IMG/VR virus record: IMGVR_UViG_3300022696_000071
Location: 1 to 41,747 of that record
Strand: one strand, 5' to 3'
DNA length: 41,747 bases
Origin: a virus
Position 1 is the first letter of the stretch. Each line of letters begins with the position of its first letter. A program made the translations under genes and the position numbers. The notes beneath the pieces were generated by a model. It saw nothing but the letters and a program-made list of their open reading frames with translations. It did no database searches and was not told where the DNA came from. This document shows positions 8,146 through 36,173 of the stretch, one piece after another.

Positions 8146-8176
8146 TATATCTACCCTTTTTTATAATAGCTTAATA

Positions 8177-8530: not shown

Positions 8531-8587
8531 TATAATACCCCCCTCATAATAAAAATGTTTAGAGTTTGTCCTTAAATTTCAACTAAC

Positions 8588-11632: not shown

Positions 11633-11780
11633 CAACTGTCCTCCTATTGGCTGATATCTCAATTTCTTTATATAATTTTTTAACTTGATCATTTATTTTT
11701 AACAATTCTTCATGTATTTCCCTTATATCTTTTATCAATTTTTGCAACGTAACATGACTATCAAATTGTTCATTACCCAT
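11622..11780 (-). CDS. Possible small protein (52 aa) upstream of and overlapping the ThyA-family start
   Basis: Hand translation gives MGNEQFDSHVTLQKLIKDIREIHEELLKINDQVKKLYKEIEISANRRTVDEI. GAAGGA lies 8 nt upstream. It is below the ORF-track size cutoff and its stop overlaps the ThyA ATG. Confidence 0.3.
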   Translation of the reverse strand: MGNEQFDSHVTLQKLIKDIREIHEELLKINDQVKKLYKEIEISANRRTVDEI

Positions 11781-14721: not shown

Positions 14722-15927
14722 TTAAGTTCCATCTTCTTTATAATGAACTATTGATAATGTATCTCCTTCAACAAATGCATCATCTCCAATATTTATAGAA
14801 TGAATAATAAGATCTGTATTTGCACCCGTTTTAGAAACAGTCCAATAATAATCCATTACTAAAATACCATGCCTACCATATACTTTAAAATATACTGGAT
14901 CATCACCAAGATCTTCGCCCAAGTCGATAGTTAATTGAGTATCGGATTGAATATCAGTTATATCTTGAGCAGTTATACTATATGTAAGTGTTTTATTTAA
15001 AACCATATCCACATTCTGAACTGTTTCTGTCAAATTATCCCCAATAGTAGCCATAATGTTTTTTGGAACAGTTGTTACTTCGTCTATATCTCTTCTCAAG
15101 TATATTTGATCTACTTCAATTGAAAATACAATTCTATCAATTTCTGGCAAAGCTTCTGAATAAAAAATTAAATGGGTTGGTAGATTACATTCAAATGTCA
15201 TTTCTATATTTAATCTCCATTCTGCCAACCCATCACTACCTTCATACCGCTCACTACCATCATTAACATCTTCAAGTATAATTCTTGGTCGCAATACATA
15301 TGGAAAAACATTTTTATTCTTGTTTATATTTCTTATTAATAAATCTTGCTGAACATTCGTTCCTGTCCAGCTTAAATCATATGATTCCGATGTATATGGG
15401 TTTTCATAAGTATAATAATCAAAACTATCTGGAAGAATTAATTGACCATTTATATTTTTTGGCTCAATTGGTCTTCCAGTACCACCAAAGAATTGATATG
15501 CCAATATTCTATAATCAAACATTTCATATATAGAGCTACACCAAACAATCATAGATAATGATCCAACATATCTATTCAAAGCAGGTGCTATAATAATATT
15601 ACCATCATCATATATTCGTGGTTTATACTCATTTAATGCTTGTTTATGTCTAAATTGTGGATATTGATAAAAGAATCTTCCAGCTTGATCATCCGGTTTG
15701 AAATCATATCCAGGTTCAAGTGTAATAAATGGATACGATATTCTATGTTTTTCATCTGGATCTTGTAATAACTGAGTATATCGTTCTACTGATTTCTCAT
15801 AAGAAGATATGATTAATTTACTTGATCTTGGAAATAATTCTGTTTTAAAAAAATCACCAATTCCTTGTAATAAAGCTGATATGCTATTATTAATATATTG
15901 ATGATGATAAGCAGTCATGGATTTCAT
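14722..15927 (-). CDS. Hypothetical protein (401 aa)
   Basis: Listed ORF with AGGAG-like SD upstream. No motif recognised. Confidence 0.5.
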   Translation of the reverse strand: MKSMTAYHHQYINNSISALLQGIGDFFKTELFPRSSKLIISSYEKSVERYTQLLQDPDEKHRISYPFITLEPGYDFKPDDQAGRFFYQYPQFRHKQALNEYKPRIYDDGNIIIAPALNRYVGSLSMIVWCSSIYEMFDYRILAYQFFGGTGRPIEPKNINGQLILPDSFDYYTYENPYTSESYDLSWTGTNVQQDLLIRNINKNKNVFPYVLRPRIILEDVNDGSERYEGSDGLAEWRLNIEMTFECNLPTHLIFYSEALPEIDRIVFSIEVDQIYLRRDIDEVTTVPKNIMATIGDNLTETVQNVDMVLNKTLTYSITAQDITDIQSDTQLTIDLGEDLGDDPVYFKVYGRHGILVMDYYWTVSKTGANTDLIIHSINIGDDAFVEGDTLSIVHYKEDGT

Positions 15928-15953: not shown

Positions 15954-16580
15954 TTAGAATTCTACATGTTCTTTTACTTTAGCAATTATATTATTTTTCA
16001 AAAAAGTTATATTTGATAATTCTTCATATTCTTCAGTATAATTGTTATAAAGTTTATCTAATATATTATCACCAACAGAATTACTTATTTGAATACCTGA
16101 AGTACGTATAATATTGGTTTTTGTAACAGAATTATAACACTTTCTTTGAACAAAAAAGAAATTAAAATCACATTCATATCCAATGAGTTTAAATCCAATA
16201 ACAAGCAAATAATTGGAAGATTTCATTTTACAGTTCTCAATATATGTTCTTTCAACTAAAAACTTATTTAATTTGCGTTCATATGATCTATTAATACCTA
16301 AAAACTTATTAATATAGTCCACTTTTTCTTCTTTTATTGTATTCAATGTTAAGAACATTTTACAGAATTTAGATAATTCTAAATTTCTAAATAACGTTAT
16401 CGATATGTCATTTGGTTCTTTATACGTCTTAAATTGTAAAGATGTTTTTTTATTATTAAATAATATATTAAATAATATTTTTTTATTACTAACATACGTC
16501 ATATATGTATTACATCTATTAAACTTCTTTGGAAAAGATAAACTTATTTTAGTATTGTTGTTCATAATTTTATTCTCCAT
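15954..16580 (-). CDS. Hypothetical protein (208 aa)
   Basis: Listed ORF. Its start overlaps the stop of the upstream 699-aa ORF (coupled). Confidence 0.5.
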   Translation of the reverse strand: MENKIMNNNTKISLSFPKKFNRCNTYMTYVSNKKILFNILFNNKKTSLQFKTYKEPNDISITLFRNLELSKFCKMFLTLNTIKEEKVDYINKFLGINRSYERKLNKFLVERTYIENCKMKSSNYLLVIGFKLIGYECDFNFFFVQRKCYNSVTKTNIIRTSGIQISNSVGDNILDKLYNNYTEEYEELSNITFLKNNIIAKVKEHVEF

Positions 16581-18802: not shown

Positions 18803-19968
18803 TTAAAAAATTTAATAAATTATTAAACTTTTTAGATTTTATTTCTAAACCAGTTAACATGTTTAAATTTTGTCCTCCTCCAACCCATAAACAATACATA
18901 GGTCATTATGACTACCGTTTGTCCACATAGCAGCAGCTATTCCAATTTTCAAAATATCTTCTTAAAAGTACCGACTTGACCCAAAAATTGCTCGGACATA
19001 TTCTTAGAATATGATTATGTCACATGTACAATCTACTAATTCCATGTTAACAACATATACAGTTCATTATTAATCTACTTAGATTATAGAATGAATCTAT
19101 ATAGATTAATTTAAAACATTTTAGAATCTTTCATATTAGATTTTAAAAATCTAATATTAATTCTTTCTTAGATACTAAGAAAAAAGAATCTATATTTATC
19201 TAATTAGATTCTTTTAAGATTCAAATGGAAAAACTATTTGAGGTCAAATATTATTACTCGTTTCATGAAGCCCAGGCGTAATGAAACGGACATATATTGA
19301 TATATTCATGAATTATATATGAATGATTCAAAATTCCAAAAAATAATTGATAAATGAAAAATAAATAAAGATAAAGAAATCTAAATTAATTAATTTATAT
19401 CTTATTAATAAAAGAAATTTAAATGATTAATAAAATATGAATAATTAAATTTAAAGTTGAATAAATGATTTATCAATAGATATATATTAAATTTATATAT
19501 TTGATATATTAAACATTTGAATTGATAAATAAATTAGTCAAATTAGGGTAAGTAGAGGTTAACTGCAAAGTTAAAAACCTACCAAAAAACAGAAATAATG
19601 AATCATTGTGTTTCGGATTTTTATAAATAGAGAAGTGGTAGGGAGAAATGATTAGAATCTTAAAGAACTATAAAATTTGTTATTTAACCTTATTTAAGAG
19701 ATAAATTGATCTTAATAGAAAGTTATTAAGAAATTAAGAGTTGGATGTAGATGTTGTATCAATTCACTATCAATATGAATCAACTTGATTTTATTTTAAT
19801 AATTAATCTAATAAGTTAATGTTGCATCAATGTGTATCAATTTAGATAATCATAAATAAATAATCACCAGTTTTAATCATTCATGGCTCAATTTATAGAA
19901 CATATAATCTTCTTAGATCAATTTGATTATTGATGACTCCCTATCGGTCGAGAACCGGCCCTCGAACG

Positions 19969-20006
19969 GTTTTAGAAACTGCAAAACAGACCGCAGTTTC
20001 TAAAAC
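19969..20006. other. Perfect 14-bp stem / 10-nt loop hairpin (GTTTTAGAAACTGC-AAAACAGACC-GCAGTTTCTAAAAC), no flanking U-tract
   Basis: Exact inverted repeat read directly from the sequence. Confidence 0.6.
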
Positions 20007-20146
20007 GCTTCAAGACCTATTATATGTTATAATAATTATATAGAATATACTTCGTATATTAATATGTAAAATAATAACTTAACATATGGAATCAGTACCG
20101 GTCGTGTGAATCTTCTACGGCTTAATCAAGAATCTTTTTATATAGT

Positions 20147-20194
20147 GTTTACTAAGTGATCTTAGTCCGTTCCGTCCTTGATCACTTAGTAAAC
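20147..20194. other. Perfect 15-bp stem / 18-nt loop hairpin (GTTTACTAAGTGATC...GATCACTTAGTAAAC), no U-tract on either strand
   Basis: Exact inverted repeat read directly from the sequence. It lies ~140 nt past the stop of the kinase gene on the minus strand. Confidence 0.6.
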
Positions 20195-20333
20195 AAATCC
20201 GCTCTCTCCATATATTCATAATTTTTTCTTATTAGAATCTTCTGTTAAGCGGAATAGCCCCGACGATTAAGATTCTGATGTGATTCTATTTAGATATGAT
20301 CGCTAGTGGCTAGATTAAAAGTAGATAATCTAT

Positions 20334-21251
20334 TTAGATGAAATGGTCGTGTGCGCGAGTGAAAACATCGCGTGAAACTGATGATGTTTTTGGTTGTTTG
20401 ACGACATATTGTGCACATTCATTTGCTATTCTACATGATTTTTTTATATCTATATCTTGGGATAAACATATTGCCATAACTGATATAACAGTATCCCCTG
20501 CTCCACATACATTATAAACTGGAACTTTTTCTGATGGAATTTTATCTAAAACAAATTCCCTACTATCTAATAACTCCATGCCTTTATCACCTTTTGTATT
20601 GAGAATATACTTCACTTTTGGTGTACCATGTATTGTTCTAAATTCATGAAGTTCTGCATCATTTGGGGTAATTAGAAAAACACCATTATACATATGGGAA
20701 TGAATTGGTTTTGGATCTACTAATATTTTTATATTCTTTTTTATACCTTTAATTGATTTTAATTTAATAAGATCCATTAGTGGTTTACTTATAAGCCCTT
20801 TATTATAATCACTAACAATTATGATATCATATCTATTAAAATCTAATTTTTCTATTATTGAATATTTAGTTTCATCTACTTCATCTATTATAACTTCATT
20901 GTCTACTCGCAAAAGTTGAATAAAATTATCTGAAACAAATCTTTGCTTAGTAGTAGTGATATAATTATCATATTTTAATACAATAGATTCAACATATAAG
21001 TTATTAAGTAAAGTTTTAACAACTTCACCATTATCATCTTCACCAATAGCAGTTATACATTCTACATTTGCTCCAATTTCACATAAGTTTCTTATAACAT
21101 TTCCACATCCTCCAAGAAACAATTCTTCAGATTTAGTGTTTAAAATTGGAATCGGTGCTTCTGGAGATATTCTGTCGACACTACCAATGATATAATGATC
21201 TAACATTATATCGCCAACTACCAATATATTTAAATCACTTATTTTTTTCAT
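20334..21251 (-). CDS. PfkB-family sugar kinase, HldE/RfaE domain-I type (D-glycero-beta-D-manno-heptose 7-phosphate kinase-like)
   Basis: ILVVGDIMLDHYIIGSVDRISPEAPIPI matches E. coli HldE [35 protein letters not shown] ~ GGAANVA. C-terminal VYNVCGAGDTVISVMA ~ VYDVTGAGDTVIGVLA. Confidence 0.8.
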   Translation of the reverse strand: MKKISDLNILVVGDIMLDHYIIGSVDRISPEAPIPILNTKSEELFLGGCGNVIRNLCEIGANVECITAIGEDDNGEVVKTLLNNLYVESIVLKYDNYITTTKQRFVSDNFIQLLRVDNEVIIDEVDETKYSIIEKLDFNRYDIIIVSDYNKGLISKPLMDLIKLKSIKGIKKNIKILVDPKPIHSHMYNGVFLITPNDAELHEFRTIHGTPKVKYILNTKGDKGMELLDSREFVLDKIPSEKVPVYNVCGAGDTVISVMAICLSQDIDIKKSCRIANECAQYVVKQPKTSSVSRDVFTRAHDHFI

Positions 21252-21265
21252 ATTAATATGTCTTT

Positions 21266-21586
21266 CTATCTCGGAATAATATTATAAATTTTTTGTGGAG
21301 TTTCTAAATATTCAACTCGTGTAAATGGAATACTTCTCCAATCTTGTTTATCTAAATCATAAACTCTAAGTAAACCATATTTCTTTATATCACTTAGAAT
21401 TCTTGGAACATTAACATTTTTTGGTCGTTTATCTCTTGGTATTATCTCAAAATCAAGAGTACAATTCATAATTCTCATAGTATTATCTTTTTTAACAAAT
21501 TTAACTGTAACTTTATTAGATGAATTTATTTTGTTAAAAAAATCTAATGCATCTGTTATAGTTGCTCTTTCTTCATTATCTGGCAT
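21266..21586 (-). CDS. Hypothetical protein (106 aa)
   Basis: Listed ORF with GAAGGAG SD upstream. Confidence 0.45.
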   Translation of the reverse strand: MPDNEERATITDALDFFNKINSSNKVTVKFVKKDNTMRIMNCTLDFEIIPRDKRPKNVNVPRILSDIKKYGLLRVYDLDKQDWRSIPFTRVEYLETPQKIYNIIPR

Positions 21587-21590
21587 TGTA

Positions 21591-22268
21591 TTAAATCTCC
21601 TTCTTAAACATCATGATTGAATGGGGTTCTTTAGAAGAATTAAGTCCAGATTTAGCTACCAAGCTAAATTTTACATCTGATGAATTTACAAAAAGGTCTT
21701 CGTATTGCTGTTCTGAGCGAAATGTGATATATTTTGTTGGTTTATGTTCAAGAGTATTTTCTGTAATTAATACATATCCATCATCTTTTAACTCTTCATA
21801 AAATCTGTTAATATAATATTTTAATAAATCTTCATCCATTATGTGTTGAAGAGATACGCATGTCCAAACCAAATCAAATTTATACTCTGAATCTTGTAAT
21901 TCAAAAGTTCCATCATCATTTATTTGTGTAAAAAATACATCATTATACCACGGGAGATTTGTCATGATACGATCATTATTTGGCATAATATCTACACCAT
22001 GATAATCATCAAAATAATCTGAAAGAAATGGTGCCCATCTTCCTATACCACATCCAAAATCTAAAACTTTTTTCTTCTGACGTGGTTTATCTGGTTTGAG
22101 TTGTTTAAGTTTATTAAATCGTTTTTCTAATACTTTACGAATTATATTTCCCCATCTTGTAGTTTCTCGCTTATATCTTTTTTCATCCCAATCGTATCTA
22201 CCAACTACATTTATTTCTTCCATTTCAGCATATCGTTTTTCCCAATATTCTTTATTTGTCTTAAACAT
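21591..22268 (-). CDS. Class I SAM-dependent methyltransferase
   Basis: Motif I VLDFGCGIGRW, acidic motif II (YHGVDIMP) and post-II DLVWTCVSLQHI. Confidence 0.6.
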   Translation of the reverse strand: MFKTNKEYWEKRYAEMEEINVVGRYDWDEKRYKRETTRWGNIIRKVLEKRFNKLKQLKPDKPRQKKKVLDFGCGIGRWAPFLSDYFDDYHGVDIMPNNDRIMTNLPWYNDVFFTQINDDGTFELQDSEYKFDLVWTCVSLQHIMDEDLLKYYINRFYEELKDDGYVLITENTLEHKPTKYITFRSEQQYEDLFVNSSDVKFSLVAKSGLNSSKEPHSIMMFKKEI

Positions 22269-22294
22269 AATACTCTCCTTTTATATATTTTTAT

Positions 22295-23356
22295 TTAGTT
22301 TTTTAATTCTTCTCCAAATACATAATTATGTTTACCAATTGAATTATTATCATATAATATACATTCGCCATTATCATTACATATTATATCTAATAATTCA
22401 TTAGCAACATGATGCCATGTTCTATTATTTTTTACAAACTCTCTACCCTTTTCTCCTATCGCTAATCGCTCAACATAATTATCATCATTTAAATATTTTA
22501 TTAATTTCTGTTTTAAATCAAATAATGATTCAAATACTATAAGTTGTTCTTCGTTTTCTATTCCAAGTCTTGCAGTCATATTTGGTATTGTTTTAGTAAA
22601 TACCATAGATCCACATGCCAATATATTCCATAATCTCAACGATGAATATCCCTCATAGCATCCTCTACTTAAATTTAGAACAGCTTTACTTTTTGAACAT
22701 ATTTCCCTGAATTTATCTGGATATATAAATTGAGTATAACCTGGACCAAAAAATTTAACTTTGAATCCTTCATCTTTCAAATATTTATAAATTACATCAC
22801 GCTCATTATCTCTGCCACCTATAAATGATACATCATATTCTTTTTCCATATCAACTGGTTTATAAGTGTTAATATCACTTCCATCAATTACATGATACAC
22901 ATTTAATTTTATTCTTTTTGCCCATCTTAATGCATTCCCATAACCAGTAGCTGTTCTATAATGAAAATATTTACTGAATTCAAACATACGATTACGTTTG
23001 AGTTGAGGATACCAATCAGGGAACCAATGAAGTGTTCTACAATTTCTTGATGCAAGTTGGATAGTTTGAAGTGGTATATTATTTCCTTTTTGTATAATTA
23101 ATAAATCACATATATTTGATAATCTTATAATTTTACTAACAATAGTATTATAATTTTCAGCCATTTCTTTTCGATAATCGAATTTGATAACTTCTTCAAC
23201 TATTTCATTATCTCTAAAACCTCTCTCAAAATAAATTGAACTAGAAGCTATACTATTAAATACTCCAACTATAGCAACTTTTATTTTCTTTTTACTAAGT
23301 GGTAAACTTTTTCTTGATTTGATCATATGTACATCTGGATTTATTTTTGAATACAT
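22295..23356 (-). CDS. Putative glycosyltransferase (GT-B / CgeB-like C-terminal domain)
   Basis: The C-terminal half resembles CgeB/GT1-type domains (EGYSSLRLWNILACGSMVF...). Weak, by eye only. Confidence 0.4.
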   Translation of the reverse strand: MYSKINPDVHMIKSRKSLPLSKKKIKVAIVGVFNSIASSSIYFERGFRDNEIVEEVIKFDYRKEMAENYNTIVSKIIRLSNICDLLIIQKGNNIPLQTIQLASRNCRTLHWFPDWYPQLKRNRMFEFSKYFHYRTATGYGNALRWAKRIKLNVYHVIDGSDINTYKPVDMEKEYDVSFIGGRDNERDVIYKYLKDEGFKVKFFGPGYTQFIYPDKFREICSKSKAVLNLSRGCYEGYSSLRLWNILACGSMVFTKTIPNMTARLGIENEEQLIVFESLFDLKQKLIKYLNDDNYVERLAIGEKGREFVKNNRTWHHVANELLDIICNDNGECILYDNNSIGKHNYVFGEELKN

Positions 23357-23358
23357 AA

Positions 23359-24162
23359 CTATGATGCCTTTTCCATTATTATTGGATTATAATTCATAAA
23401 TTCATATCTATAAATCGCTGGCGAATGTTTGAAACTTTGATCTATACTTGATAAATATGAAATAACTTCTTCTGTTTTTCTTACAGTAATTCCATATATT
23501 TTTTGATTATTTTTTCTATATTTTGCTTTACTCCAATCACCTTTCATATCATTATGCCTATGAAACTGATGAATTAATTTCCAGTTAAATGGTTTACTTT
23601 TTGTAAAATATTCTGCTTGACGTATTAAACAATTATCTATACCACCAAGCTCTTGTAAAAATTCATTACATCCACCAATTTTCCAATAATAATCTTTATC
23701 AAAATATACAAGTCCACCTTCACACATTCCCCTTCTTGGTGTATCTTCTCTAACAACTCTACCAAATACATCATAATACGTTATACGATCCCAACAATGA
23801 CACCATTTTAAATTATTATTCTTTATATAATTATACAATGGTTTAAAATATCTTAATGGTCTATATGGAATACAATCAGATTCACCTAATATAATATCAT
23901 TGGATTCAGAAGCTTTAACTCCAATATTGTAACACCATGATTTATTAAAAATTGGATAATTTATCTGTATAAATTTCACATTATGATCTACATTTCCTAT
24001 AGTATCTTTATAAGTTGGAAATTTATCATTAACAATTTGTTCTACTATGATTATTTTTAAAAGATCGTTTTTATACGGAGATAGTTGATTATGTATATTA
24101 TCAACTCTATCTTCAAAATCTGGTCCATTTATATTACATACAGGAATAATCAAAGTGAACAT
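23359..24162 (-). CDS. Putative GT-A fold glycosyltransferase
   Basis: N-terminal FTLIIPVCN, followed by IIVEQ and a DxD-like ESDCIPY, is typical of GT2/GT7-like enzymes. Weak. Confidence 0.4.
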   Translation of the reverse strand: MFTLIIPVCNINGPDFEDRVDNIHNQLSPYKNDLLKIIIVEQIVNDKFPTYKDTIGNVDHNVKFIQINYPIFNKSWCYNIGVKASESNDIILGESDCIPYRPLRYFKPLYNYIKNNNLKWCHCWDRITYYDVFGRVVREDTPRRGMCEGGLVYFDKDYYWKIGGCNEFLQELGGIDNCLIRQAEYFTKSKPFNWKLIHQFHRHNDMKGDWSKAKYRKNNQKIYGITVRKTEEVISYLSSIDQSFKHSPAIYRYEFMNYNPIIMEKAS

Positions 24163-24166
24163 ATTA

Positions 24167-24439
24167 TTATCTCTCCTTTACATATTTCCTTCTAAGTTCA
24201 TGAAATTTTCTAAGTGCTGCAACCATTATTTTATTATAGCACCCAATACATAAATCTTTTGATTCTTCCCTTTCAGATATTCGATGTGTATTTCCATCAC
24301 TATCGCCTTGTATATGTACTCCAATATTATCATCAAAATATGAATCAATATGACATAGATAATTGAATTTATTACTATATCTTTCATTTGTAATTTCTTT
24401 ATTACAACAATCACATTTAACAATTTTAATAATAGCCAC
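24167..24439 (-). CDS. Small Cys-rich zinc-ribbon protein (90 aa)
   Basis: CDCC...C (N-terminal) and CIGC (C-terminal) pairs. Confidence 0.4.
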   Translation of the reverse strand: MAIIKIVKCDCCNKEITNERYSNKFNYLCHIDSYFDDNIGVHIQGDSDGNTHRISEREESKDLCIGCYNKIMVAALRKFHELRRKYVKER

Positions 24440-24441
24440 GA

Positions 24442-25428
24442 TTAATTCTCCATATTCTTAAAATTAAATATTACTGATTTTTTCTTTTCTGGTTTACTTT
24501 TTGTTAATGCTAAAATCTTGTTAAATATTACCCGATAATCTGTTTTATATGACAATGTTTTTTCTTCATAAAAATCACATTGTGTTTTAAATGGATTTTC
24601 TAAAACTAAATGTCTATGTTTTTCATGACCCCACATTAATGTTGGTATTTTTAAATAATTTGATAATATTGGAATAGCTGATTGCTGGCCTATCGTTAAT
24701 TTTGAAGCTTTTATTGCTTCTATGGTAAGACCAATTAAACTAGTTTCATGTTGTGGAAATAAATAATCTTCTAATATTATAAATGATTCAAGTGATTCAT
24801 CTGGCTTTAATATTGATCCAGATAAACCAGGAATAAAACATATAAACTTTTCAGATTTCTCTATTAATTCAAACAAATCATTCCAATAATCTTCTCTCCA
24901 GTTTCTTTCTTTCCCTTTTTCTAAATCTATTCTATGTCTTGGAGATATTACAATTGGTATTTTATTTATATATTTTTTCTTATTTAATATATTATATATT
25001 ATTCCTTTATTATTTGCTCTTGGTTTAAAATTAAAATCCATTTTATCAAAATCAAATATATTTCTATTTGGAGTATTAATAGTTTTAATTATATGTATAT
25101 CATTATCAATTACATCAGTTATAATCTTAAATAAGTTTTTAAAATCAGAAGGAGAAAAATAATCCAATCTATACATATTTGGTCTATATTTATGATAATC
25201 TCCATCTATATCAAATGGTATTATATCATCTACATTATTAGAATAAAGATCTATTCTTTCAGATCTTGTAATTGCATATATTTTTTTATCATAATATGTA
25301 TTTTTTACCCACCGTACAAAACCACACCATCTATATAGTTCCCAACCAAGTTCTCCTATAAATGGTCCAAATGCTATTTTATCATTCTCAGATATTTCTT
25401 TAATAAAATTTTCTTGTATACTATTCAT
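24442..25428 (-). CDS. Hypothetical protein (328 aa), possibly glycan-processing
   Basis: Listed ORF in the glycosylation gene block. No firm motif. Confidence 0.45.
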   Translation of the reverse strand: MNSIQENFIKEISENDKIAFGPFIGELGWELYRWCGFVRWVKNTYYDKKIYAITRSERIDLYSNNVDDIIPFDIDGDYHKYRPNMYRLDYFSPSDFKNLFKIITDVIDNDIHIIKTINTPNRNIFDFDKMDFNFKPRANNKGIIYNILNKKKYINKIPIVISPRHRIDLEKGKERNWREDYWNDLFELIEKSEKFICFIPGLSGSILKPDESLESFIILEDYLFPQHETSLIGLTIEAIKASKLTIGQQSAIPILSNYLKIPTLMWGHEKHRHLVLENPFKTQCDFYEEKTLSYKTDYRVIFNKILALTKSKPEKKKSVIFNFKNMEN

Positions 25429-25439
25429 ACTTAAATCCT

Positions 25440-27266
25440 TTATATTAATTTTCCAACTATCATCTCTATATCTTCATAATCATTCAATTTAGAAAAATCT
25501 AACATTTTTATCCAGTTACTATTTGGTAAATCTTTATTATAATCAGAATGAGTATAAACTAATGAATTTTTCTTCGTTAAGTATGACAAATACATCATAT
25601 TTGACATATTTGTCGTTATAGATAAATCACTGATACATATATATCCAGCTAATTTAATAAAATCTATATTATTTATAAATCTAACGTTTCTTTTTTGTGA
25701 TATATGGGGAGGAAAATTTATTTTTTGTTCATCGATTAACGATATGATTAAAAAATTATAGAATTGATCATTTGATAATTTAGATATTGCGCCTATATAA
25801 TTCTTTAAATATAAAGCATTAGTACCTTTTATATGAGATCCAGATAAAACTATCATATTTTTAAATACAGAAGATTTTGGAATAGTATATTTACAATATG
25901 GATTTGGAACAGATTCATCTATATCATATTTTGCTATCATACTATGATTTTGTTTAACAGGATGATTATTTGAATTGCCACTTGGATAGAAACAATTATA
26001 ATCTCCAATATTTAAATTACAATTTAATGTTCTGAATATATTATCATAGCTGTTCAAATTTATTAGATTAGATTTTATATCTTTAACATCATATATATTT
26101 CTTATTCTACTATCATTTATAATATATAAACTTGGTCGCAATTTATCATCTGTTAATATATCAATTTTACCAATAGATAATCTATTTAAATCTTTTATAA
26201 ATGGTACAGTATACGCAATATCTCTTAAATTAGAATTTACTAATATTAATGAATGTTTATCTGGATTAAATTTAGTTGAAGTTACTTTTATTGGGGTTAC
26301 ATTCTTTTGAACTCTTGGTTCGTTAAATGTATCTATTAACCCTTTCTGTTTATTATATCTATCTGATAAAATTTTATTTTGATATTCACTATTTGTATAC
26401 CATGTTGGTATATTATCTGGAGTAACAATCATCTTAGATATTCTATGTGTATCTCCAAATTCATTATTAAGATTATTTGGTATAAATACGACATTCCTAT
26501 CTTTTGTTTGTATTTTATTATATAGTATTAAATCTCTTCTTTGAATATCATTTAATATTAATTGATTATCATATCTAAAGCATAAGCTTGGTGTCTGCCT
26601 TGATGATTTTTCTTTAAGTCCAAATTTTTTAAGTTGATGAATTAAATGAATTCTTGACATCTCAGTGAACATTTCTTCTTCAAGACCATTAATCATATGC
26701 ACAAGATATTTTAATTTGCATATGATTATAGGGACAAATTCTCCACTATCTTTAATTTTTTTAATAGCTCTTGCTCTTTCAATGATAGCTCTTCCTAAAT
26801 TTTCATCTACTTCATCAATATCTCTATATCTATCAAAAGAAAATCTTTTATCATCATCTTGATAATCATAATATGTTCTTATAGTGGAAAAATGAGTATT
26901 AAAATTTGTCTCATGTTGCCCTTTTCCTTTCTTATGCTCATAATACAAAGCAGCAACGTTAACAGAACAATATCCATCAATTAATACCATAAATCTATCA
27001 AATAATTTATCATTATTAAGATTAGCCAAAACTATATTGATAGCAAGTGGATAATTAAATCCAACTGAATTGGTAATATAAGAAGATGTAAATAAAGGAA
27101 TTACATCTTTTAATTCATTATTACTTAATTCTTTGGCATTTTTTCCCATAAGAGACAAATGAATATTTGTACGAGAATTAAATTTATGAATACTCTTTAA
27201 CCAATCTATATTACAATTTTCAGAATCAGCACCAATTATTATATCTGTTTCTTGCTCTTTTATCAT
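25440..27266 (-). CDS. Hypothetical large protein (608 aa). The C-terminal region is possibly GT9-like
   Basis: C-terminal MIVLSGSHIKGTNALYLKNYIGAI resembles the acceptor-side region of heptosyltransferases. Speculative. Confidence 0.4.
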   Translation of the reverse strand: MIKEQETDIIIGADSENCNIDWLKSIHKFNSRTNIHLSLMGKNAKELSNNELKDVIPLFTSSYITNSVGFNYPLAINIVLANLNNDKLFDRFMVLIDGYCSVNVAALYYEHKKGKGQHETNFNTHFSTIRTYYDYQDDDKRFSFDRYRDIDEVDENLGRAIIERARAIKKIKDSGEFVPIIICKLKYLVHMINGLEEEMFTEMSRIHLIHQLKKFGLKEKSSRQTPSLCFRYDNQLILNDIQRRDLILYNKIQTKDRNVVFIPNNLNNEFGDTHRISKMIVTPDNIPTWYTNSEYQNKILSDRYNKQKGLIDTFNEPRVQKNVTPIKVTSTKFNPDKHSLILVNSNLRDIAYTVPFIKDLNRLSIGKIDILTDDKLRPSLYIINDSRIRNIYDVKDIKSNLINLNSYDNIFRTLNCNLNIGDYNCFYPSGNSNNHPVKQNHSMIAKYDIDESVPNPYCKYTIPKSSVFKNMIVLSGSHIKGTNALYLKNYIGAISKLSNDQFYNFLIISLIDEQKINFPPHISQKRNVRFINNIDFIKLAGYICISDLSITTNMSNMMYLSYLTKKNSLVYTHSDYNKDLPNSNWIKMLDFSKLNDYEDIEMIVGKLI

Positions 27267-27281
27267 TTTATATAATATCTC

Positions 27282-28208
27282 CTACCATTCAGTTACAGCT
27301 TTAGAATTTTTAAATCTATTAAATATTTCTTTATGATTCATATCTTTTAATTCTTTTTCATAAGTATATAAACTATCACGATTTGATTCATAATAATTTT
27401 CTCCAAATTTTGGATTCATTAAAGTATTACATATTGATCCTATTCCTTTTAATCCACCAAGATGCATTACTAATGGATTATCTTCTTTATTTTTTGGCAA
27501 AACAGCCATCATATAATTATTTGGTCCAATAGTTTTTCTTATAAAACTCCATGTAGAAGTATCATGTCGTTTTCTAACATTATATGCATTATATATTATA
27601 TCTTTATTTATGGTCCAAACTTTATATATATTTTCCATTTGATGTTGACCCATAAACCAAAAACCAGATCCACCACCACCATCTGCATATATAACATCTA
27701 TAGATCCAGATTTTTTAATATGTGTCGCTGATCTTAATCTAAATGGTATACCTCCTGGATACTTAATGCAGAAATGTATGGTATTTTTTGGATTAAATGT
27801 ATTTAAATTATCTACAGCTTCTACAAACTGAGAATCCCAATCTTCTCCAACTAACATATCATTATCTATAAGAAGATAATAATTTGATACACCAACTGGT
27901 TTAATCATTTTTTTATTCAGATCATTCATTTGATTCATCATAATCAGCCATCGATAAAATACTATTGATTTACCAAAGCAATTATGTAATGATTCATTTG
28001 TATCATATGAATAATAGTGAATTTTTTTATCTCTTAATAATTTATAAAATAAATCCAACCTACTTTTATTTAATTCTGATAAATTATCAAATACATATAT
28101 GTATATATTATCAAATTTCGTAGAATTATCTAATATAGAACATATTGTATGAGTTGTTAATAAAGTTCTATCCCTTGTTGGGATCATCACGTATAAATTT
28201 CTTTTCAT
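27282..28208 (-). CDS. Putative GT2-family glycosyltransferase
   Basis: YVMIPTRDR (cf. the GT2 IPTYNR motif) and LIDNDM (DxD). Confidence 0.45.
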   Translation of the reverse strand: MKRNLYVMIPTRDRTLLTTHTICSILDNSTKFDNIYIYVFDNLSELNKSRLDLFYKLLRDKKIHYYSYDTNESLHNCFGKSIVFYRWLIMMNQMNDLNKKMIKPVGVSNYYLLIDNDMLVGEDWDSQFVEAVDNLNTFNPKNTIHFCIKYPGGIPFRLRSATHIKKSGSIDVIYADGGGGSGFWFMGQHQMENIYKVWTINKDIIYNAYNVRKRHDTSTWSFIRKTIGPNNYMMAVLPKNKEDNPLVMHLGGLKGIGSICNTLMNPKFGENYYESNRDSLYTYEKELKDMNHKEIFNRFKNSKAVTEW

Positions 28209-28241
28209 ATATTTCCCCTCTATAAATTTCTCATTTTAGTA

Positions 28242-28287
28242 TTTGTCCTTTTCAGAGTGTGGATTAATTTTACAAATAGCGGACAAA
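28242..28287. promoter_or_regulatory. Divergent promoter/operator candidate: GGACAAA box (reverse, 28242-28248), AGTGTGG (28256-28262), TAGCGGACAAA box (28277-28287)
   Basis: The exact 11-mer TAGCGGACAAA recurs at 14691-14701 (minus), 18771-18781 (minus) and 28277-28287 (plus). AGTGTGG lies 14-18 nt upstream of the box here and at 18796-18802 (reverse complement CCACACT) and 34611-34617. Confidence 0.4.
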
Positions 28288-28338
28288 CATTAAACTATTC
28301 TATTTTAATTTACATATACTAATAGAAAGGGGCAATTT

Positions 28339-29568
28339 ATGAACAAGGGTGCAATGCGTAGATTGGGTATAAGTGTAAGAGAAAATGGTCATGTCGATAC
28401 TCTGAAAGAAGTATTGGATGAACCACCGTTTATGGTATTAGCTAAAGTATTACATAATGGATATTTTAATATCCAAGATAAATCAATACAGATTAAAAAG
28501 GGATCTGTATTAGCTATGCCATTAAATTTTTATAATAATTGTCATAGAGCAAGAGAATCTGGAAGAAGAAAACTTCTTAAACCAAACAGAAGACCATTTA
28601 ATTATTATTTTAAAAGATACAGGGGAGAAGATTTAACAAATAAAAAGTTACTAATATGGCGAACTGGTGGAATAGGAGACTTACTTTTCATACAACCCAT
28701 AGTAAAATATATTAAACGAACATATGAAAATGTTCACATAACGATTGCGTCATCTCCAAGATTTACTGATATTTTAGAATGTTGGCCTGATGGATTAGTA
28801 GATGATATAAAATCTATACCATTTAGTTATAAGTTATTAATGAATCATAATTATCATATTACATTTGAAGGGGTTATTGAAAGATGTAAAGAAGCTCAAG
28901 TTAAAAATTGTTATGATCTATTTTCTGAAACTGCTGGATTAGATCTCGATCATACTTCCGATGATAATAAAATAGAACTTGTTTCAGATGATTCATTAAT
29001 ACATAATAATATATTACCAGAAAGTGACTATGTTGTTGCTCAAATGAGAGCAAGTAATCCATGTAGAATAATGTCAACAAGAAAATGGTCACAATTAATA
29101 AATGGTATAACTAATTATGGATTGAAAGTTGTAATAATCGATTCTCCAAAATTTCAACAATTTTATGATGACTTGTTTAAAAATTATACTATAAATAAAG
29201 ATGATGTATTTAATCTATCAGAACATTCTAAATCAATAAAACATGCTGTATCCGTTATAAATAGAGCAAAAGGAGTTATTGGAATAGATTCTTCATTTAT
29301 ACATATTGGAGAAGCACTAAATAAACCAGTGTATGGTTTATATGGTCCATTCACTGCTGATGTAAGAATGAGATATTATAGAAATTATGATTTCAGTGAA
29401 CCAGAAAAAGTAGTATGCAAGTATCAACCATGTTTTTTTCATCAGAATGAAACTAAAAAATGTCCATTTATAGCACAAAGAAAAAATCCTGGCTGTCTTG
29501 AAGAAATAGATATAGAAGTATCAGTAAAGAAATTTATGAATCTTCTTGGAATTACCGATGGAGAATAA
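28339..29568 (+). CDS. GT9-family glycosyltransferase (ADP-heptose heptosyltransferase-like) with an extra ~100-aa N-terminal extension
   Basis: LLIWRTGGIGDLLFIQPIVKYIKRTYENVHITIASSP matches the WaaC/WaaF N-terminal signature (R/K-x-x-x-x-GD-x-L-x-x-x-P...I-x-x-L). The C-terminal Rossmann region has G-rich IGIDSSFIHIGEALNKPV. Confidence 0.62.
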   Translation: MNKGAMRRLGISVRENGHVDTLKEVLDEPPFMVLAKVLHNGYFNIQDKSIQIKKGSVLAMPLNFYNNCHRARESGRRKLLKPNRRPFNYYFKRYRGEDLTNKKLLIWRTGGIGDLLFIQPIVKYIKRTYENVHITIASSPRFTDILECWPDGLVDDIKSIPFSYKLLMNHNYHITFEGVIERCKEAQVKNCYDLFSETAGLDLDHTSDDNKIELVSDDSLIHNNILPESDYVVAQMRASNPCRIMSTRKWSQLINGITNYGLKVVIIDSPKFQQFYDDLFKNYTINKDDVFNLSEHSKSIKHAVSVINRAKGVIGIDSSFIHIGEALNKPVYGLYGPFTADVRMRYYRNYDFSEPEKVVCKYQPCFFHQNETKKCPFIAQRKNPGCLEEIDIEVSVKKFMNLLGITDGE

Positions 29569-29818: not shown

Positions 29819-30595
29819 ATGGAAAAAGAAACAGTTATTCAGTTATTTACTCCGGGATTAGATAGTTATCTTGGTTATCACTATTTATCAAAAAAATACA
29901 ATGTTAAAAGAATATATTTTAAATTGAAATCAAGATATACTGATAATGAGATAAAAATACTCAATAATTTTTATAATGATATTTATATATATGAAAATTT
30001 AAATTTATCTGATATAGAACATGACGATGCATATATACCAAATAGAAATTTATTAATGGCAACATTAGCATCATCATTGTATCCAAATATATCTAAAATA
30101 TTTATAAATGGTATGAAAGATGATAGAGTTAATGATAATAGAGAAGATGTATTTAATAGATTATCTATAGTAGTATCTATGAGTATGGATAAACCGATAA
30201 TGATAACTAGTGAATTCTGGAATAAAGAAAAATCTGAAATGGTATCAACATTTGTAATAAAAAATGAGCCAATAATAGAACATTTAGCAACCAGAACATA
30301 TAGTTGTTTTAGTAAGTTTTTTATATACAATAAAACAAGAATATATAATGGTAATCCAATAGATGGTAAATTTAATAAAAATGGAAGATTAAAAATTTAT
30401 GGATGTTGTTCATGTCCAGCTTGTTTTCGTAGATTTGCGGCATTATCGAATGCAAATATATTTATACCATTTAGAAATGATAATATAGTAGATGGTTATA
30501 GAGGAGATGCTATAAATAAAAATATTCATCCATTCAGATATTTTTCAACACTTGAATATATTAGATTTTTAGATTTTATGAAAGGAGTGAGATAA
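29819..30595 (+). CDS. queC: QueC-like 7-cyano-7-deazaguanine synthase homologue (PP-loop ATPase fold with a degenerate PP-loop)
   Basis: IPNRNLLMATLAS ~ QueC VPGRNLLFMSIAA. C-terminal zinc motif CCSCPACFRR ~ CGECPACQLR. The N-terminal TPGLDS replaces the canonical SGGxDS. Confidence 0.65.
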   Translation: MEKETVIQLFTPGLDSYLGYHYLSKKYNVKRIYFKLKSRYTDNEIKILNNFYNDIYIYENLNLSDIEHDDAYIPNRNLLMATLASSLYPNISKIFINGMKDDRVNDNREDVFNRLSIVVSMSMDKPIMITSEFWNKEKSEMVSTFVIKNEPIIEHLATRTYSCFSKFFIYNKTRIYNGNPIDGKFNKNGRLKIYGCCSCPACFRRFAALSNANIFIPFRNDNIVDGYRGDAINKNIHPFRYFSTLEYIRFLDFMKGVR

Positions 30596-31459: not shown

Positions 31460-32029
31460 ATGATAGAAAATAATGGCGATAATATAAATGAAAATGAAAT
31501 ATCATTCGATGATAGAACTATGATAATAATGGTTGGTAATATCGGAACTGGTAAAACATCAAAAATAAAACAAATAATTCATAAATTTGGTAAATATATA
31601 ATTGTATGTTTGGATGATTTACTCACATGTTTTCATGGTAAATATAAATACATAAAAGATTTTTCACTAATGTACAATATTATAGAAGATAGTATTATAT
31701 ACGAAGCAATGAAAAATAATTCAATAGTTATAATAGATAGAACATGCATAAATGAACGTGTAAGAAAAAGATTCATACAAATGGCAAAAGATAATAATTA
31801 TAATGTTGCATGTTATAATTTTGGATCTGGAACTGATGTATCTCTAAAAAGACGGTTAGTAAATCCAAAAGGAAATAGTGAAGATACATGGATAACAGTA
31901 CATAATAATATGAATAAAATATACGAAGCTCCACTTCTATCTGAGGGGATAGATGAAATATTCACCGTCAATGAAGACGGTATCGTTACACGGAGAGAGA
32001 AGTTAGTCAAAAACAACAATCATAATTAA
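31460..32029 (+). CDS. P-loop NTPase / nucleotide or polynucleotide kinase-like protein
   Basis: Walker A MVGNIGTGKTS near the N terminus. The size and layout resemble dNMP/AAA_33-type kinases. Confidence 0.5.
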   Translation: MIENNGDNINENEISFDDRTMIIMVGNIGTGKTSKIKQIIHKFGKYIIVCLDDLLTCFHGKYKYIKDFSLMYNIIEDSIIYEAMKNNSIVIIDRTCINERVRKRFIQMAKDNNYNVACYNFGSGTDVSLKRRLVNPKGNSEDTWITVHNNMNKIYEAPLLSEGIDEIFTVNEDGIVTRREKLVKNNNHN

Positions 32030-33379: not shown

Positions 33380-33991
33380 ATGTCTGTCATTGGGATACGA
33401 GAAGTCATAAAGATGATAAAAGATGGAGTAGATTTATCTTTAGGTACATTTAAATCAAAATCAGTTAAGAATGTTAAACCATTAATTGAAAATTTTGATA
33501 AAGACGCGATAGTTAAACCAGAAGGAACAACATTCGATGTACGATTAGATAAATTGTTTGAATTAAAAAATGTTGATAATCTCGGAAATACATATACTCC
33601 TGAATTATTAGTTTCTGGTAGAATTACAGCAAATTCTACAGAAATTAGCCCTGATGGAAAACAAATATACTCTATATATCCAAATAAACCATATCTTGTA
33701 ACAACATTAGAAAGATTAAATACTCCAAATAATATCTTTCCAATGTGTAATAGAAGAACTACTATGTTCAGAAGTGGCCTGATTATGCAAATGACAAATG
33801 TATCTCCGGGGTATAGGGGTTATCTGTCATTTATGATATATAATGTACTTAATCACATAGTTCGAATTCAACGTGGTTTTGGAATTGCTTCTATTGCATT
33901 TTTTACAATAGATGGTCGCGCTGTTCCATACGATGGTGTTTGGCAAGAAAATAAACGAATCACAACAACTGAAGAAATAAGACCAAAATGA
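33380..33991 (+). CDS. dCTP deaminase / dUTPase superfamily protein (Dcd-like)
   Basis: FDVRLD ~ Dcd [38 protein letters not shown] ~ [43 protein letters not shown] ~ GMLIGALSF. Confidence 0.65.
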   Translation: [203 protein letters not shown]

Positions 33992-34668: not shown

Positions 34669-35496
34669 TTGGAGGTATTAGTGGATAAAAATAAGAAAGA
34701 AGTCATCATAAAAAAGATATTGGAACATTGTTCTATATTGGAAGAAGTATTAAATAACGAATTATTAATTGAATTTGGTAAATTAAGAAATATAAAAACA
34801 AAATATAATAGATTTAGTGCAAAACAAGAAGTTATAGCACAGAGAGGATTCTTTTTAGATGTAAAAAAGAAATATGCATTATGGATTATAAATAATGAAG
34901 GAGTGGATACGGAAGAGTTTGATATAAAAGGGCTAATAACAAAAAGATCTGACTATCCAACATTAACTAAAGAAAAAATAATGGATATCATAAGTTTTCT
35001 TGTAAAAGATGATGTAGTATCTTTTAAGAAAATAAAAAAACATATAGATGAACAAGATAATAATATACGATCATTATGTATAAAAGGTGATAAATCTATA
35101 GCAAGACCTGTATCATTCTCTAAACCACTCAAAGAATATAAAAGAGTACCATCTCATGTGGAGGGTATGTTACTGTGGAATAAATTAGAATATGATTATT
35201 TTGTTCCAGGTACAAAGGGATATCAATTTAAGATAATTGGAATAGATCCAGTAATATCTACTGGAAGAGTACAATCATCATTACCATATATAAATTTTAA
35301 AAAGAATAATAATGTGGTTTTACCATACGAAGCAGATCGTCTTCCTAAATATTATAATATCGATGTTGAATCAATGATTCAATTTGCATGGGTTAATAGA
35401 TATAAAGAATTATTACATCCAATATGGGATAGATTACAATCATCTGGAAAAAACAAAAGTGGTAGATCTATGGCACAATTTGCATTTCAATTTTAA
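34669..35496 (+). CDS. Family-B DNA polymerase C-terminal fragment (thumb domain with KKRY motif and C-terminal clamp-binding tail), encoded as a separate gene
   Basis: GFFLDVKKKYALWIINNEG ~ T4/RB69 gp43 GGFWTGKKRYALNVWDMEG. The terminal ...MAQFAFQF ~ RB69 ...SLFDMFDF clamp-interaction motif. The likely true start is GTG at 34681 after GGAGG; the listed TTG is at 34669. Confidence 0.68.
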   Translation: MEVLVDKNKKEVIIKKILEHCSILEEVLNNELLIEFGKLRNIKTKYNRFSAKQEVIAQRGFFLDVKKKYALWIINNEGVDTEEFDIKGLITKRSDYPTLTKEKIMDIISFLVKDDVVSFKKIKKHIDEQDNNIRSLCIKGDKSIARPVSFSKPLKEYKRVPSHVEGMLLWNKLEYDYFVPGTKGYQFKIIGIDPVISTGRVQSSLPYINFKKNNNVVLPYEADRLPKYYNIDVESMIQFAWVNRYKELLHPIWDRLQSSGKNKSGRSMAQFAFQF

Positions 35497-36173
35497 ATCT
35501 TTCTTGCTAATTTTTTCATATCATCTGATGTTAATAAGTTATCTTTTTTATATTCATATTTTGAAATCGCTTCTGAAATGTTTGATTTACATTTATCAGG
35601 ATTACTTGTTTTATCACATAATTCTTTTTGTTTCTCCAATTGAGTAATAGTATCGTGCATTACTTTTATTTTACATGTTGTTAATCTATCACCTCTTAAT
35701 TGCCAGCATTCGCCATGTAGTCGCTTTCTATAATAAGTTACAATCATTGAACCGATTGCTAAACCAAGAGCAATGCTTGCCAAAACAGATAATATTCGAG
35801 TAGCTTTCATTGATTTATTTGCATTTTTTGAAGCTTTTTCTGCCATATCTGCAACATCATTCAATCTTTTTTTAGTATCTTTATAATCTCTTTTTAATTT
35901 TCCAATTATACTTCTTGGTCTTCTTTCTGTTGATGAGCTACTACGTTCACTTCTATTTGACGAAGATCTAGAAGAAAAAGATGCTATATAACTTTTTAGT
36001 TTACTCAAACCAGACGATTCAGACGATTCAGATAATTCAATCATATTATCTATATTATTTATCATTTCTTGTCTAATATTATTATTTATATCCAAATCTT
36101 CAATAGCTAATATCATTGATTCAATGCAATTAAAACTTAATTCCTCACCAATATATTTTTCAGATATATACAT
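35493..36173 (-). CDS. Membrane protein (226 aa): N-terminal coiled/Ser-rich region, one TM helix, Cys-containing C-terminal domain
   Basis: Hydrophobic segment ILSVLASIALGLAIGSMIVTYY. AAGAGG SD. TATAAATA lies 16 nt upstream of the ATG on the minus strand. Confidence 0.55.
   Translation of the reverse strand: MYISEKYIGEELSFNCIESMILAIEDLDINNNIRQEMINNIDNMIELSESSESSGLSKLKSYIASFSSRSSSNRSERSSSSTERRPRSIIGKLKRDYKDTKKRLNDVADMAEKASKNANKSMKATRILSVLASIALGLAIGSMIVTYYRKRLHGECWQLRGDRLTTCKIKVMHDTITQLEKQKELCDKTSNPDKCKSNISEAISKYEYKKDNLLTSDDMKKLARKI

Follow-up and report, generated by a model that had tools for sequence, protein, structure and literature searches.

A GT9-anchored glycosyltransferase locus conserved in large uncultured T4-like phages: a candidate heptose-based glycan assembly pathway

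Virus-encoded glycosylation is known in chloroviruses, giant viruses and some mycobacteriophages, and on DNA in T-even-like phages; the capsid glycan enzymes of the chlorovirus PBCV-1 include A064R, a glycosyltransferase (GT)-GT-methyltransferase protein. To our knowledge, neither heptose nor an enzyme of glycosyltransferase family 9 (GT9) is known in the mycobacteriophage and chlorovirus glycosylation systems. In bacteria, TibC of enterotoxigenic Escherichia coli (ETEC) is an autotransporter O-heptosyltransferase with Asp110 as the catalytic base, composed of a β-barrel (residues 1-97), a four-stranded N-lobe (98-195) and a C-lobe (218-406) and carrying a 1Fe-0S iron finger (Cys339/342/358/370) that is unique to the bacterial autotransporter heptosyltransferases (BAHTs) (PMC4358343). 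Here we describe a GT locus (positions 20334-29568) in a viral DNA stretch of 41,747 nt, IMG/VR record IMGVR_UViG_3300022696_000071 (hereafter the window), which is anchored by a GT9 enzyme that appears to combine the catalytic residues of heptosyltransferases with a domain plan and a metal finger like those of the BAHTs, the only known protein heptosyltransferases. We tentatively read the locus as a phage-encoded, soluble cytoplasmic glycan-assembly pathway that starts on heptose and glycosylates a phage protein, giving this reading somewhat less than an even chance.

Among phages, O-glycosylation of the capsid and tail tube has been reported for mycobacteriophages (Freeman et al. 2023, as cited in PMC12619734), and the moraphages, T4-related phages from aquatic settings that measure 200-307 kb and have structural genes of the T4 kind, carry four core GT orthogroups whose role is unexplained, with Bacteroidota as predicted hosts (Arch Virol 2025, PMC12619734). 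Virion glycosylation machineries use virus-encoded cytoplasmic GTs and a methyltransferase (MT) to place a partly methylated glycan on a structural protein, an arrangement that we propose here from the genes; the mycobacteriophage and chlorovirus systems differ in drawing on other enzyme families. Phage DNA GT systems (T4 α/β-GT type; Pyle et al.) resemble the present locus in that the GTs lie beside nucleotide-sugar activation genes and near DNA metabolism genes. They employ T4-β-GT-like GT-B or TarP/JGT-like GT-A enzymes with a cytosine MT and TET, or with dCMP hydroxymethylase, and add at most three sugars, whereas the locus described here has a GT9/BAHT-like anchor and at least six GTs.

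Between 28208 and 20334, nine open reading frames (ORFs) follow one another on the minus strand at intervals of only 2-26 nt, so we treat them as one operon, and the GT9 gene diverges from them on the plus strand across a 130-bp intergenic region (Table 1). These boundaries coincide exactly with those of the original prediction of a dense glycosylation locus, and the kinase, the MT and several of the GTs named there found support. Two small operon genes, those of the WYL_2 protein and the four-Cys protein p90, were not part of that prediction. None of the 12 locus proteins has a predicted membrane segment, nor is a flippase, polymerase or priming transferase among them. Scans for sigma-70 promoters and terminators gave no signal above shuffled sequences, and T4 late-promoter motif counts and consensus promoter scans were uninformative in such AT-rich DNA (25% GC). 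The window (25-33% GC) belongs to a T4-like phage, and a distant one. Its family-B DNA polymerase (PolB) carries a uracil-DNA glycosylase (UDG) domain at the N terminus and has its best GenBank matches, at ~29% identity, in cyanomyophage gp43 proteins; a clamp loader of the gp44 type and a primase-like protein are also encoded, as is a giant ORF resembling tail fibres. Syntenic relatives have a T4-type portal gene and DnaB. The T4-like replication genes and the portal bear out the phage origin assumed at the outset.

The anchor enzyme matched PF01075 with 45.7 bits (gathering score 22), a family that was also found in 117 of 120 GT9 homologues among the matches listed, and its AlphaFold2 (AF2) model shows a GT-B fold with GT9 enzymes as the nearest solved structures. 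About 100 aa precede the catalytic motif, in agreement with the predicted GT9 gene carrying an extra N-terminal domain. The sequence G-G-I-G-D114 aligns with the catalytic motif of TibC and of the lipopolysaccharide (LPS) heptosyltransferase WaaF, and D317-S-S-x-x-H322 aligns with the WaaF donor motif D-S-G-L-M-H. Five residues that align with heptose/ADP contacts of WaaF/TibC (D114, S239, R243, D317 and H322) are kept in 37 of the 37 homologues from the clade that shares the gene trio described below. We rate heptose as somewhat more likely than not to be the donor sugar of the anchor GT9.

To compare the anchor with TibC, the sequence encoded by tibC of ETEC H10407 was aligned by hhalign to the phage GT9 family profile. 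TibC 94-113 (...PTGTLGD110LLG) fell on GT9 99-117 (...RTGGIGD114LLF), the sugar-binding T226 and K230 on S239 and R243, and the iron-finger cysteines C339, C342, C358 and C370 one-to-one on C360, C365, C375 and C386, all four of which are again invariant in the 37 trio-clade homologues. In the AF2 model, β-rich residues 1-100 are followed by a four-stranded N-lobe. The two proteins, of 406 and 409 aa, are both soluble and cytoplasmic, and have in common the motif TGxxGDLL and a Cys4 finger in the C-lobe; the model suggests that the phage enzyme also resembles TibC in an N-terminal β domain of ~100 residues and a reduced four-stranded N-lobe (BAHTs TibC and AAH, GT9; PDB 4rap/4rb4; eLife 2014, PMC4358343). 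The anchor may thus be described as BAHT-like in architecture, the N-terminal likeness being that of a structure model, and not as a member of the BAHTs. It is, on its TIGR04414 score (below), not a TibC orthologue. It has an extra conserved His368 and a Cys spacing unlike that of TibC, and an autotransporter substrate, the partner expected of a BAHT, was seen neither in the window nor in the loci compared. The BAHT domain plan favours a protein acceptor over other acceptors. Three observations count against such a reading: the anchor scored 15.2 bits on TIGR04414 (Aah/TibC; cut-off 200), the hhalign match between the GT9 family and the single TibC sequence has a statistically weak probability of 32%, and the donor motif is of the WaaC/WaaF kind (D317...H322), where TibC has P300...W305.

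That donor motif brings in an alternative, namely that the enzymes remodel the host envelope, acting on the LPS core, the O-chain or another envelope glycan and so guarding against superinfection or re-adsorption to lysed cells. BAHTs aside, the solved GT9 enzymes returned are LPS core heptosyltransferases, and WaaC, WaaF and WaaQ have the catalytic G-D motif and the donor motif D-S/T-G-x-x-H in common with the phage enzyme. The literature interprets the HldE-type kinase and GT genes of cyanomyophages and pelagimyophages in the same way and annotates a "heptosyltransferase I" of a huge phage as an LPS auxiliary metabolic gene, and the lack of membrane segments is no bar, since the transferases of the LPS core are soluble or peripheral as well. 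However, the anchor does not reach the equivalog cut-offs of these enzymes (TIGR02195, 45.8 bits against 134.6; TIGR02193, 45.6 against 185.3; TIGR02201, 39.3 against 170.2), and it differs from them in its 100-aa N-terminal domain, its shorter N-lobe, its Cys4 finger and its place in a phage core module with five other GTs. In WaaF (348 aa), the solved LPS heptosyltransferase aligned, the catalytic motif lies within the first 15 residues and the chain ends soon after the YGP motif, with no Cys cluster. The locus proteins include no lipid-carrier priming enzyme, flippase, polymerase or ligase, and, unlike the pelagimyophage genes, which lie in a hypervariable island for host recognition, the trio is a core at a fixed position in phages with 32-49% GT9 identity. 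We consider envelope remodelling unlikely.

The anchor GT9 has 73 loci in IMG/VR, many of them on contigs of 100-312 kb. It has hundreds of full-length metagenomic homologues with 34-49% identity, and neither the locus (megablast) nor GT9 (tblastn) found a match in 50,697 GenBank phage records. GT9 forms a trio with p308 and p328 in ~35 loci of large uncultured T4-like phages, in a conserved genomic position: p308 adjoins GT9 in 35 loci, and p328 co-occurs with it in 31-35. The conserved core is GT9, p308 and p328, and the kinase and the MT are accessory. The original prediction had the locus "built around" the kinase, which must be revised, since L004 and L006, its nearest relatives by synteny, have neither kinase nor MT. 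Together with L008, these two loci form a subclade with the layout of the window, in which GT9 diverges from p308-p608-p328-p267-CgeB. The distal arm of the operon, MT-WYL_2-kinase in the window, has none of these genes in L004, and in L006 contains SDR, radical-SAM/SPASM, Methyltransf_21, TOD1_MUCI70, sulfotransferase and rhamnosyltransferase-like genes; we take the WYL_2 protein for a probable passenger. Main-clade loci usually have, ahead of the trio, homologues of the window ORFs 15954-16580 and 14722-15927, a NUDIX gene and an actin-like Volactin gene, and the trio is followed there by a GT4-type and a GT-D-like transferase.

Surface glycan loci are patterned in this way, with a conserved core and a variable arm, and because the trio is kept as a core across divergent phages while the modification arm varies, an acceptor intrinsic to the phage is favoured. 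Two gene fusions were found among the relatives, one joining a p308-like part (1-271) to a p328-like part (293-584) (L033:11202-12968) and the other (P0142) joining a p328-like part (4-300) to an S-adenosylmethionine (SAM)-dependent MT (316-461) homologous to that of the window, a GT-MT fusion as in the A064R type of PBCV-1. The fusions and the tight operon suggest that these genes act in one pathway. The trio phages probably belong to the moraphage lineage or to a sister lineage, the two being likened by description and not by sequence; the GT9/BAHT features, the heptose genes and the trio structure were not identified in the moraphage study (PMC12619734).

A further trio member, p328, had no match in Pfam, PHROG or NCBIfam. 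Its AF2 model (pLDDT 92.3) gave GT9 structures as the best Foldseek matches (3tov, WaaC and WaaF, E 4e-8 to 1e-7), and hhalign aligned it with the GT9 family at 96.4% probability (E 1e-9); the catalytic and donor motifs are altered to E26/E30 and G-Q-Q-S. The model thus presents p328 (328 aa) as a second, motif-altered GT9-like GT-B enzyme. In the same way, residues 335-590 of the p608 family (A7) aligned with the GT9 family over 244 columns (90.7% probability, E 1.2e-6), which substantiates the GT9-like C terminus guessed for one of the large unassigned proteins, with p328 as a further case. The D...H donor motif of GT9 is replaced in both p328 and p608. Among 1.84 billion proteins, the p608 family is represented just 40 times, and it is restricted to the subclade of the window. 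The N-terminal half of p608 matched none of the p308, p267 and p328 profiles by hhalign; an origin of p608 from a p308-p328 fusion that later diverged was considered and dropped.

PDB sequence-profile searches with p328, p308 and p608 were negative. In p308 (308 aa), a DxD motif (D115, D117) and R12/R14 are invariant across a 30-sequence alignment, and 10 of the 30 family members weakly match PF00535 (best E 1.6e-4), while p308 itself has no Pfam match; by its sequence it is probably a GT-A, GT2-like glycosyltransferase. For p267 (267 aa), the motifs FNKxWxxNxG, ExD and GGxxxF...GGxNE...ELGGxDN are invariant in a four-sequence alignment (A5), and the PDB profile search yielded only ppGalNAcT (E 0.75). 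We take these motifs to resemble those of GT7 (β4GalT) and GT2_2, and they weakly suggest a GT-A enzyme of a β4GalT or GT2_2-like kind. Of the GT-A-like and GT2-like enzymes originally proposed, p308 is probably GT2-like, and p267 reached only a sub-threshold match (E 0.007). No relationship between p267 and p308 was found by hhalign. The CgeB-like GT, claimed from the start, is well above its cut-off (PF13524, 62.9 bits against 25) and has homologues of 44-50% identity in the same position in L004, L006 and L008. Several class-I MT Pfam families matched the SAM-dependent MT above threshold, again as claimed; it is likely a sugar O-methyltransferase of the pathway, and an MT homologue adjoins GT9 in L008.

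The setting of the locus among replication and nucleotide-metabolism genes, and not in the structural module, weighs against a virion acceptor and leads to a second alternative, DNA hypermodification, in which the transferases would put heptose-containing sugars on a hydroxymethyl-pyrimidine or other modified base and shield the genome from host nucleases. The UDG-PolB, clamp loader and primase genes are near, and the ThyA-family gene, the DCD-like gene and the P-loop kinase represent the three enzyme types of the T4 hydroxymethylcytosine pathway. The ThyA-family and DCD-like genes were called "adjacent", and the fibre "next door", which is loose: the fibre lies 12 kb, the ThyA-family gene 9 kb and the DCD-like gene 4 kb from the locus. 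Every GT of the locus is soluble, with a basic pI of 8.4-9.1, and the small basic histone-like protein p89 is co-transcribed with GT9. Phage gene clusters have been shown to make mono- and di-heptosyl-5-hydroxymethylcytosine (bioRxiv 10.1101/2023.12.21.572611), so the statement that such a target would be undescribed for heptose no longer holds for DNA and holds only for virion proteins. The DNA heptosyltransferase published there, however, belongs not to GT9 but to the T4-β-GT-like GT-B enzymes, and its partners are a cytidylyltransferase and a HAD/APH kinase (bioRxiv 10.1101/2023.12.21.572611). The best 50-60 PDB matches listed for the GT9 and p328 models begin with GT9 enzymes and continue with other GT-B enzymes, with no T4 α- or β-glucosyltransferase chain among them. 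With six transferases, and methyl, sulfo and other modifiers in the relatives, the system exceeds the trisaccharide that is the maximum known on DNA; because at least six GTs plus modifiers are far above what the known DNA sugar modifications need, a phage protein is favoured over DNA. The spliced active-site motif of the ThyA-family protein (YR-SWDVY-SGFPCN) retains the dUMP-type Asn, by which synthase and hydroxymethylase are not separable, and QueC-like and QueE-like genes in the window suggest another, 7-deazaguanine-based DNA modification. Sugar addition to DNA thus seems improbable to us.

The kinase at the distal end of the operon matched PfkB (PF00294, E 7e-23, 81.8 bits) and scored 249.9 bits on TIGR02198 (rfaE_dom_I), against at most 46 bits for the next sugar-kinase family (ribokinase). 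Its sole PDB match was HldA of Burkholderia cenocepacia (4e84, E 1e-33), with RISPEAP and GAGDT aligned, in support of the HldE-type kinase that had been predicted, at a sub-equivalog level. Phage homologues with 26-34% identity occur in cyanophages and in a 735-kb phage. A PfkB domain with RISPEAP and GAGDT is common to the window kinase and to the split kinase and nucleotidyltransferase systems of cyanomyophages (P-SSM2, S-SM2 etc.) and pelagimyophages; in cyanophages, L001 and L008 the kinase has an adenylyltransferase partner, whereas that of the window stands alone inside a multi-GT operon. In the syntenic relative L008, a bifunctional HldE (PfkB and CTP_transf_like) lies beside GT9 on the side away from the operon, and a PfkB-kinase-like fragment adjoins GT9 in the more distant L044.

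Several of these results weigh against a heptose pathway. The kinase is below the equivalog cut-offs (TIGR02198, 249.9 against 345; PRK11316, 203.5 against 521) and is missing from L004, L006 and ~30 other trio loci. No window ORF matched CTP_transf_like, SIS or HAD, and tblastn of the adenylyltransferase domains of L008 and L001 on the window returned nothing below E 0.7; the window, which holds no adenylyltransferase, GmhA or GmhB, therefore cannot make ADP-heptose alone, and the hosts predicted for the probable lineage are Bacteroidota (PMC12619734), which may or may not supply ADP-heptose. Such points would fit a third alternative, in which the GT9-fold enzymes use other nucleotide sugars and the kinase, unrelated or of different specificity, stands at the variable end of the operon by chance; the replaced D...H motif of p328 and p608 agrees with it. 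Against this, the kinase keeps the HldA-specific RISPEAP and GAGDT and has HldA as its one PDB relative, a syntenic cluster (L008) has the complete bifunctional HldE, and the five putative heptose/ADP contacts of GT9 are invariant. We regard a pathway free of heptose as very unlikely.

We therefore return to the reading of a heptose-started pathway on a phage protein. In the proposed scheme, the kinase would raise the flux through the host ADP-heptose pathway, with the adenylyltransferase, GmhA and GmhB coming from the host or from elsewhere in the ~201-kb genome. With ADP-heptose as donor, GT9 would place heptose on Ser/Thr residues in a phage protein, the remaining transferases would extend it into a hetero-oligosaccharide and the MT would cap it, so that the conserved trio would be extended here by p608, p267, the CgeB-like GT, the SAM-dependent MT and the HldA-type kinase. 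The ADP-heptose donor, the protein acceptor and the order of the steps are what we infer from these genes. A phage protein is favoured as acceptor because the system is soluble and has no flippase, polymerase or priming transferase. The more specific version, a core phage pathway in which the iron-finger-type GT9 O-heptosylates a virion protein and two to five GTs plus an MT build a decorated oligosaccharide that varies with the lineage, is rather doubtful.

The acceptor would most plausibly be a virion surface protein such as the Ser/Thr-rich repeat fibre. The fibre ORF contains ~20 copies of a 40-aa Ser/Thr-rich repeat (F.EL.DTPSSYSGQ.GK..RVN....ALEF.DST; S+T 21%), and its candidacy is speculative. 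Its distance from the locus and the relatives speak against it: the fibre repeat was found within 10 kb of GT9 in none of the 80 loci searched for it near GT9 homologues, so this candidate has no linkage to GT9 there. In ETEC, tibC lies directly upstream of tibA; giant ORFs flanking GT9 in a similar manner were considered and set aside as weak, since they occur within 1.5 kb in 5 of 38 divergent loci and could not be annotated.

Phage rfaE-type genes, phage "heptosyltransferase" annotations, heptose on phage DNA and the moraphage core GT orthogroups are already published. Three points appear to be new: that GT9, p308 and p328 make up a trio conserved as a module within a lineage of large uncultured phages; that p328 and the C-terminal half of p608 are cryptic GT9-like enzymes; and that the anchor has a Cys4 finger and is BAHT-like in architecture, which points to protein heptosylation. 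The four core moraphage GTs have so far had no role assigned. If the acceptor is a virion protein, protein heptosylation would extend from bacterial adhesins to phages. It would be the first case known beyond the autotransporters of bacteria, and T4-like phages would gain their first pathway for a virion glycan. Large phages of Bacteroidota might then shield or tune their particles with variable glycans, with relevance for receptor binding, environmental stability and recognition by host defences. Were DNA the acceptor instead, a new enzyme family would join DNA hypermodification.

Table 1. Features of the locus and of the rest of the window
Feature	Coordinates	Strand	Basis
GT9-family glycosyltransferase, 409 aa, trio anchor	28339-29568	+	PF01075
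Divergent intergenic region, 130 bp, presumed promoters both ways	28209-28338	.	ORF map
p308, probable GT-A / GT2-like, first minus-strand operon gene, trio member	27282-28208	-	DxD, weak PF00535 in family
p608, C-terminal half (~335-590) GT9-like	25440-27266	-	hhalign
p328, second GT9-like GT-B (model-based), trio member	24442-25428	-	structure model and hhalign
p90, small four-Cys zinc-ribbon-like protein	24167-24439	-	CxxC...CxxC by eye; sub-threshold DUF7685
p267, probable GT-A glycosyltransferase (weak)	23359-24162	-	Glyco_tranf_2_2 E 0.007, sub-threshold
CgeB-like GT-B glycosyltransferase, 353 aa	22295-23356	-	PF13524 Glyco_trans_1_2 E 4e-17, 62.9 bits (cut-off 25)
Class-I SAM-dependent methyltransferase, 225 aa, accessory	21591-22268	-	Methyltransf_23, _12, _25, _11 above threshold
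WYL_2 / Sm-like SH3 β-barrel protein, 106 aa	21266-21586	-	PF10902 30.8 bits (cut-off 26.7); phrog_1086 E 1e-14
HldA/HldE domain I-type kinase, last operon gene, accessory	20334-21251	-	PfkB, TIGR02198, HldA 4e84
p89, small basic protein, pI 9.2, overlaps GT9 stop codon	29546-29815	+	neighbourhood conservation
Giant tail-fibre-like ORF, >2720 aa, runs off window	1-8160	-	PHROG tail protein E 1e-151, DUF2341
Very divergent ThyA-family gene, two inteins	8588-11692	-	PHROG thymidylate synthase match only; no Pfam/PDB match
P-loop kinase	31460-32029		
DCD-like gene	33380-33991		

Among the small genes around the anchor, p89, just downstream, is conserved best, with 36-62% identity across seven loci. 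It stands directly after GT9 in L004-L008 and L026 and shows a weak Hc1 histone-H1-like match (E 0.003). A QueC-like (PP-loop) gene follows at 29819-30595 (+) and is kept just downstream of GT9-p89 in L004, L005, L008 and L026, and a QueE-like (radical SAM) gene is located at 38837-39610 (+); the two hint at 7-deazaguanine chemistry, possibly DNA modification, and no DpdA/TGT-like gene was seen in the window.

In the ThyA-family gene, intein 1 runs from CLDGDT to THN/S and intein 2 from CLSDDS to TGN/S, the latter with a LAGLIDADG domain, and the N-extein contains a Cys-rich insertion. The PolB gene is apparently split and permuted: a 275-aa C-terminal (palm/thumb) piece (34669-35496, +) lies upstream of the N-terminal part, an 861-aa protein with UDG, exonuclease and polymerase regions (36255-38840, +), and a minus-strand ORF (35493-36173) separates them. 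The two-piece PolB was also found in L004 and L006, where the comparison covers the two pieces and not the intervening ORF.

Just beyond the end of the operon, positions 18900-20334 form a very AT-rich stretch of 1.4 kb without an ORF of at least 60 aa, in which the GC skew switches sign and three short GC-rich, palindrome-bearing patches occur (~19920-20020, 20090-20200 and 20240-20300). Scans for tRNAs and Rfam families gave no match in this stretch or in the window, and the stretch may serve as an origin or in regulation, or encode a novel RNA.

The products of 14722-15927 (-, 401 aa) and 15954-16580 (-, 208 aa) had no family match and have homologues upstream of the trio in 26-28 loci; in L029, a 2546-aa ORF (1263-8903; 20% Ser+Thr) contains the homologue of the 401-aa protein. 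A 350-aa protein of L037 (7916-8962) matched PF25216 Volactin, an archaeal actin homologue family, with E 2e-75, and in 19 large-phage loci, L037 and 18 others, the gene for such a protein directly precedes the GT9 trio. We found no literature link between Volactin-like proteins and phages.

More distant GT9 genes (22-26% identity), which miss most of the N-terminal domain, were found in L055, L060, L068 and ~7 related loci on contigs of 35-68 kb, where they lie one to four genes from a lambda-type portal gene and a 1400-1600-aa ORF, in a head/packaging module. In L051, L052, L054 and L070, two GT9-family genes stand in tandem with a 4-nt overlap, the first encoding ~335-390 aa and the second ~507-526 aa, showing repeated duplication of this fold in phages.

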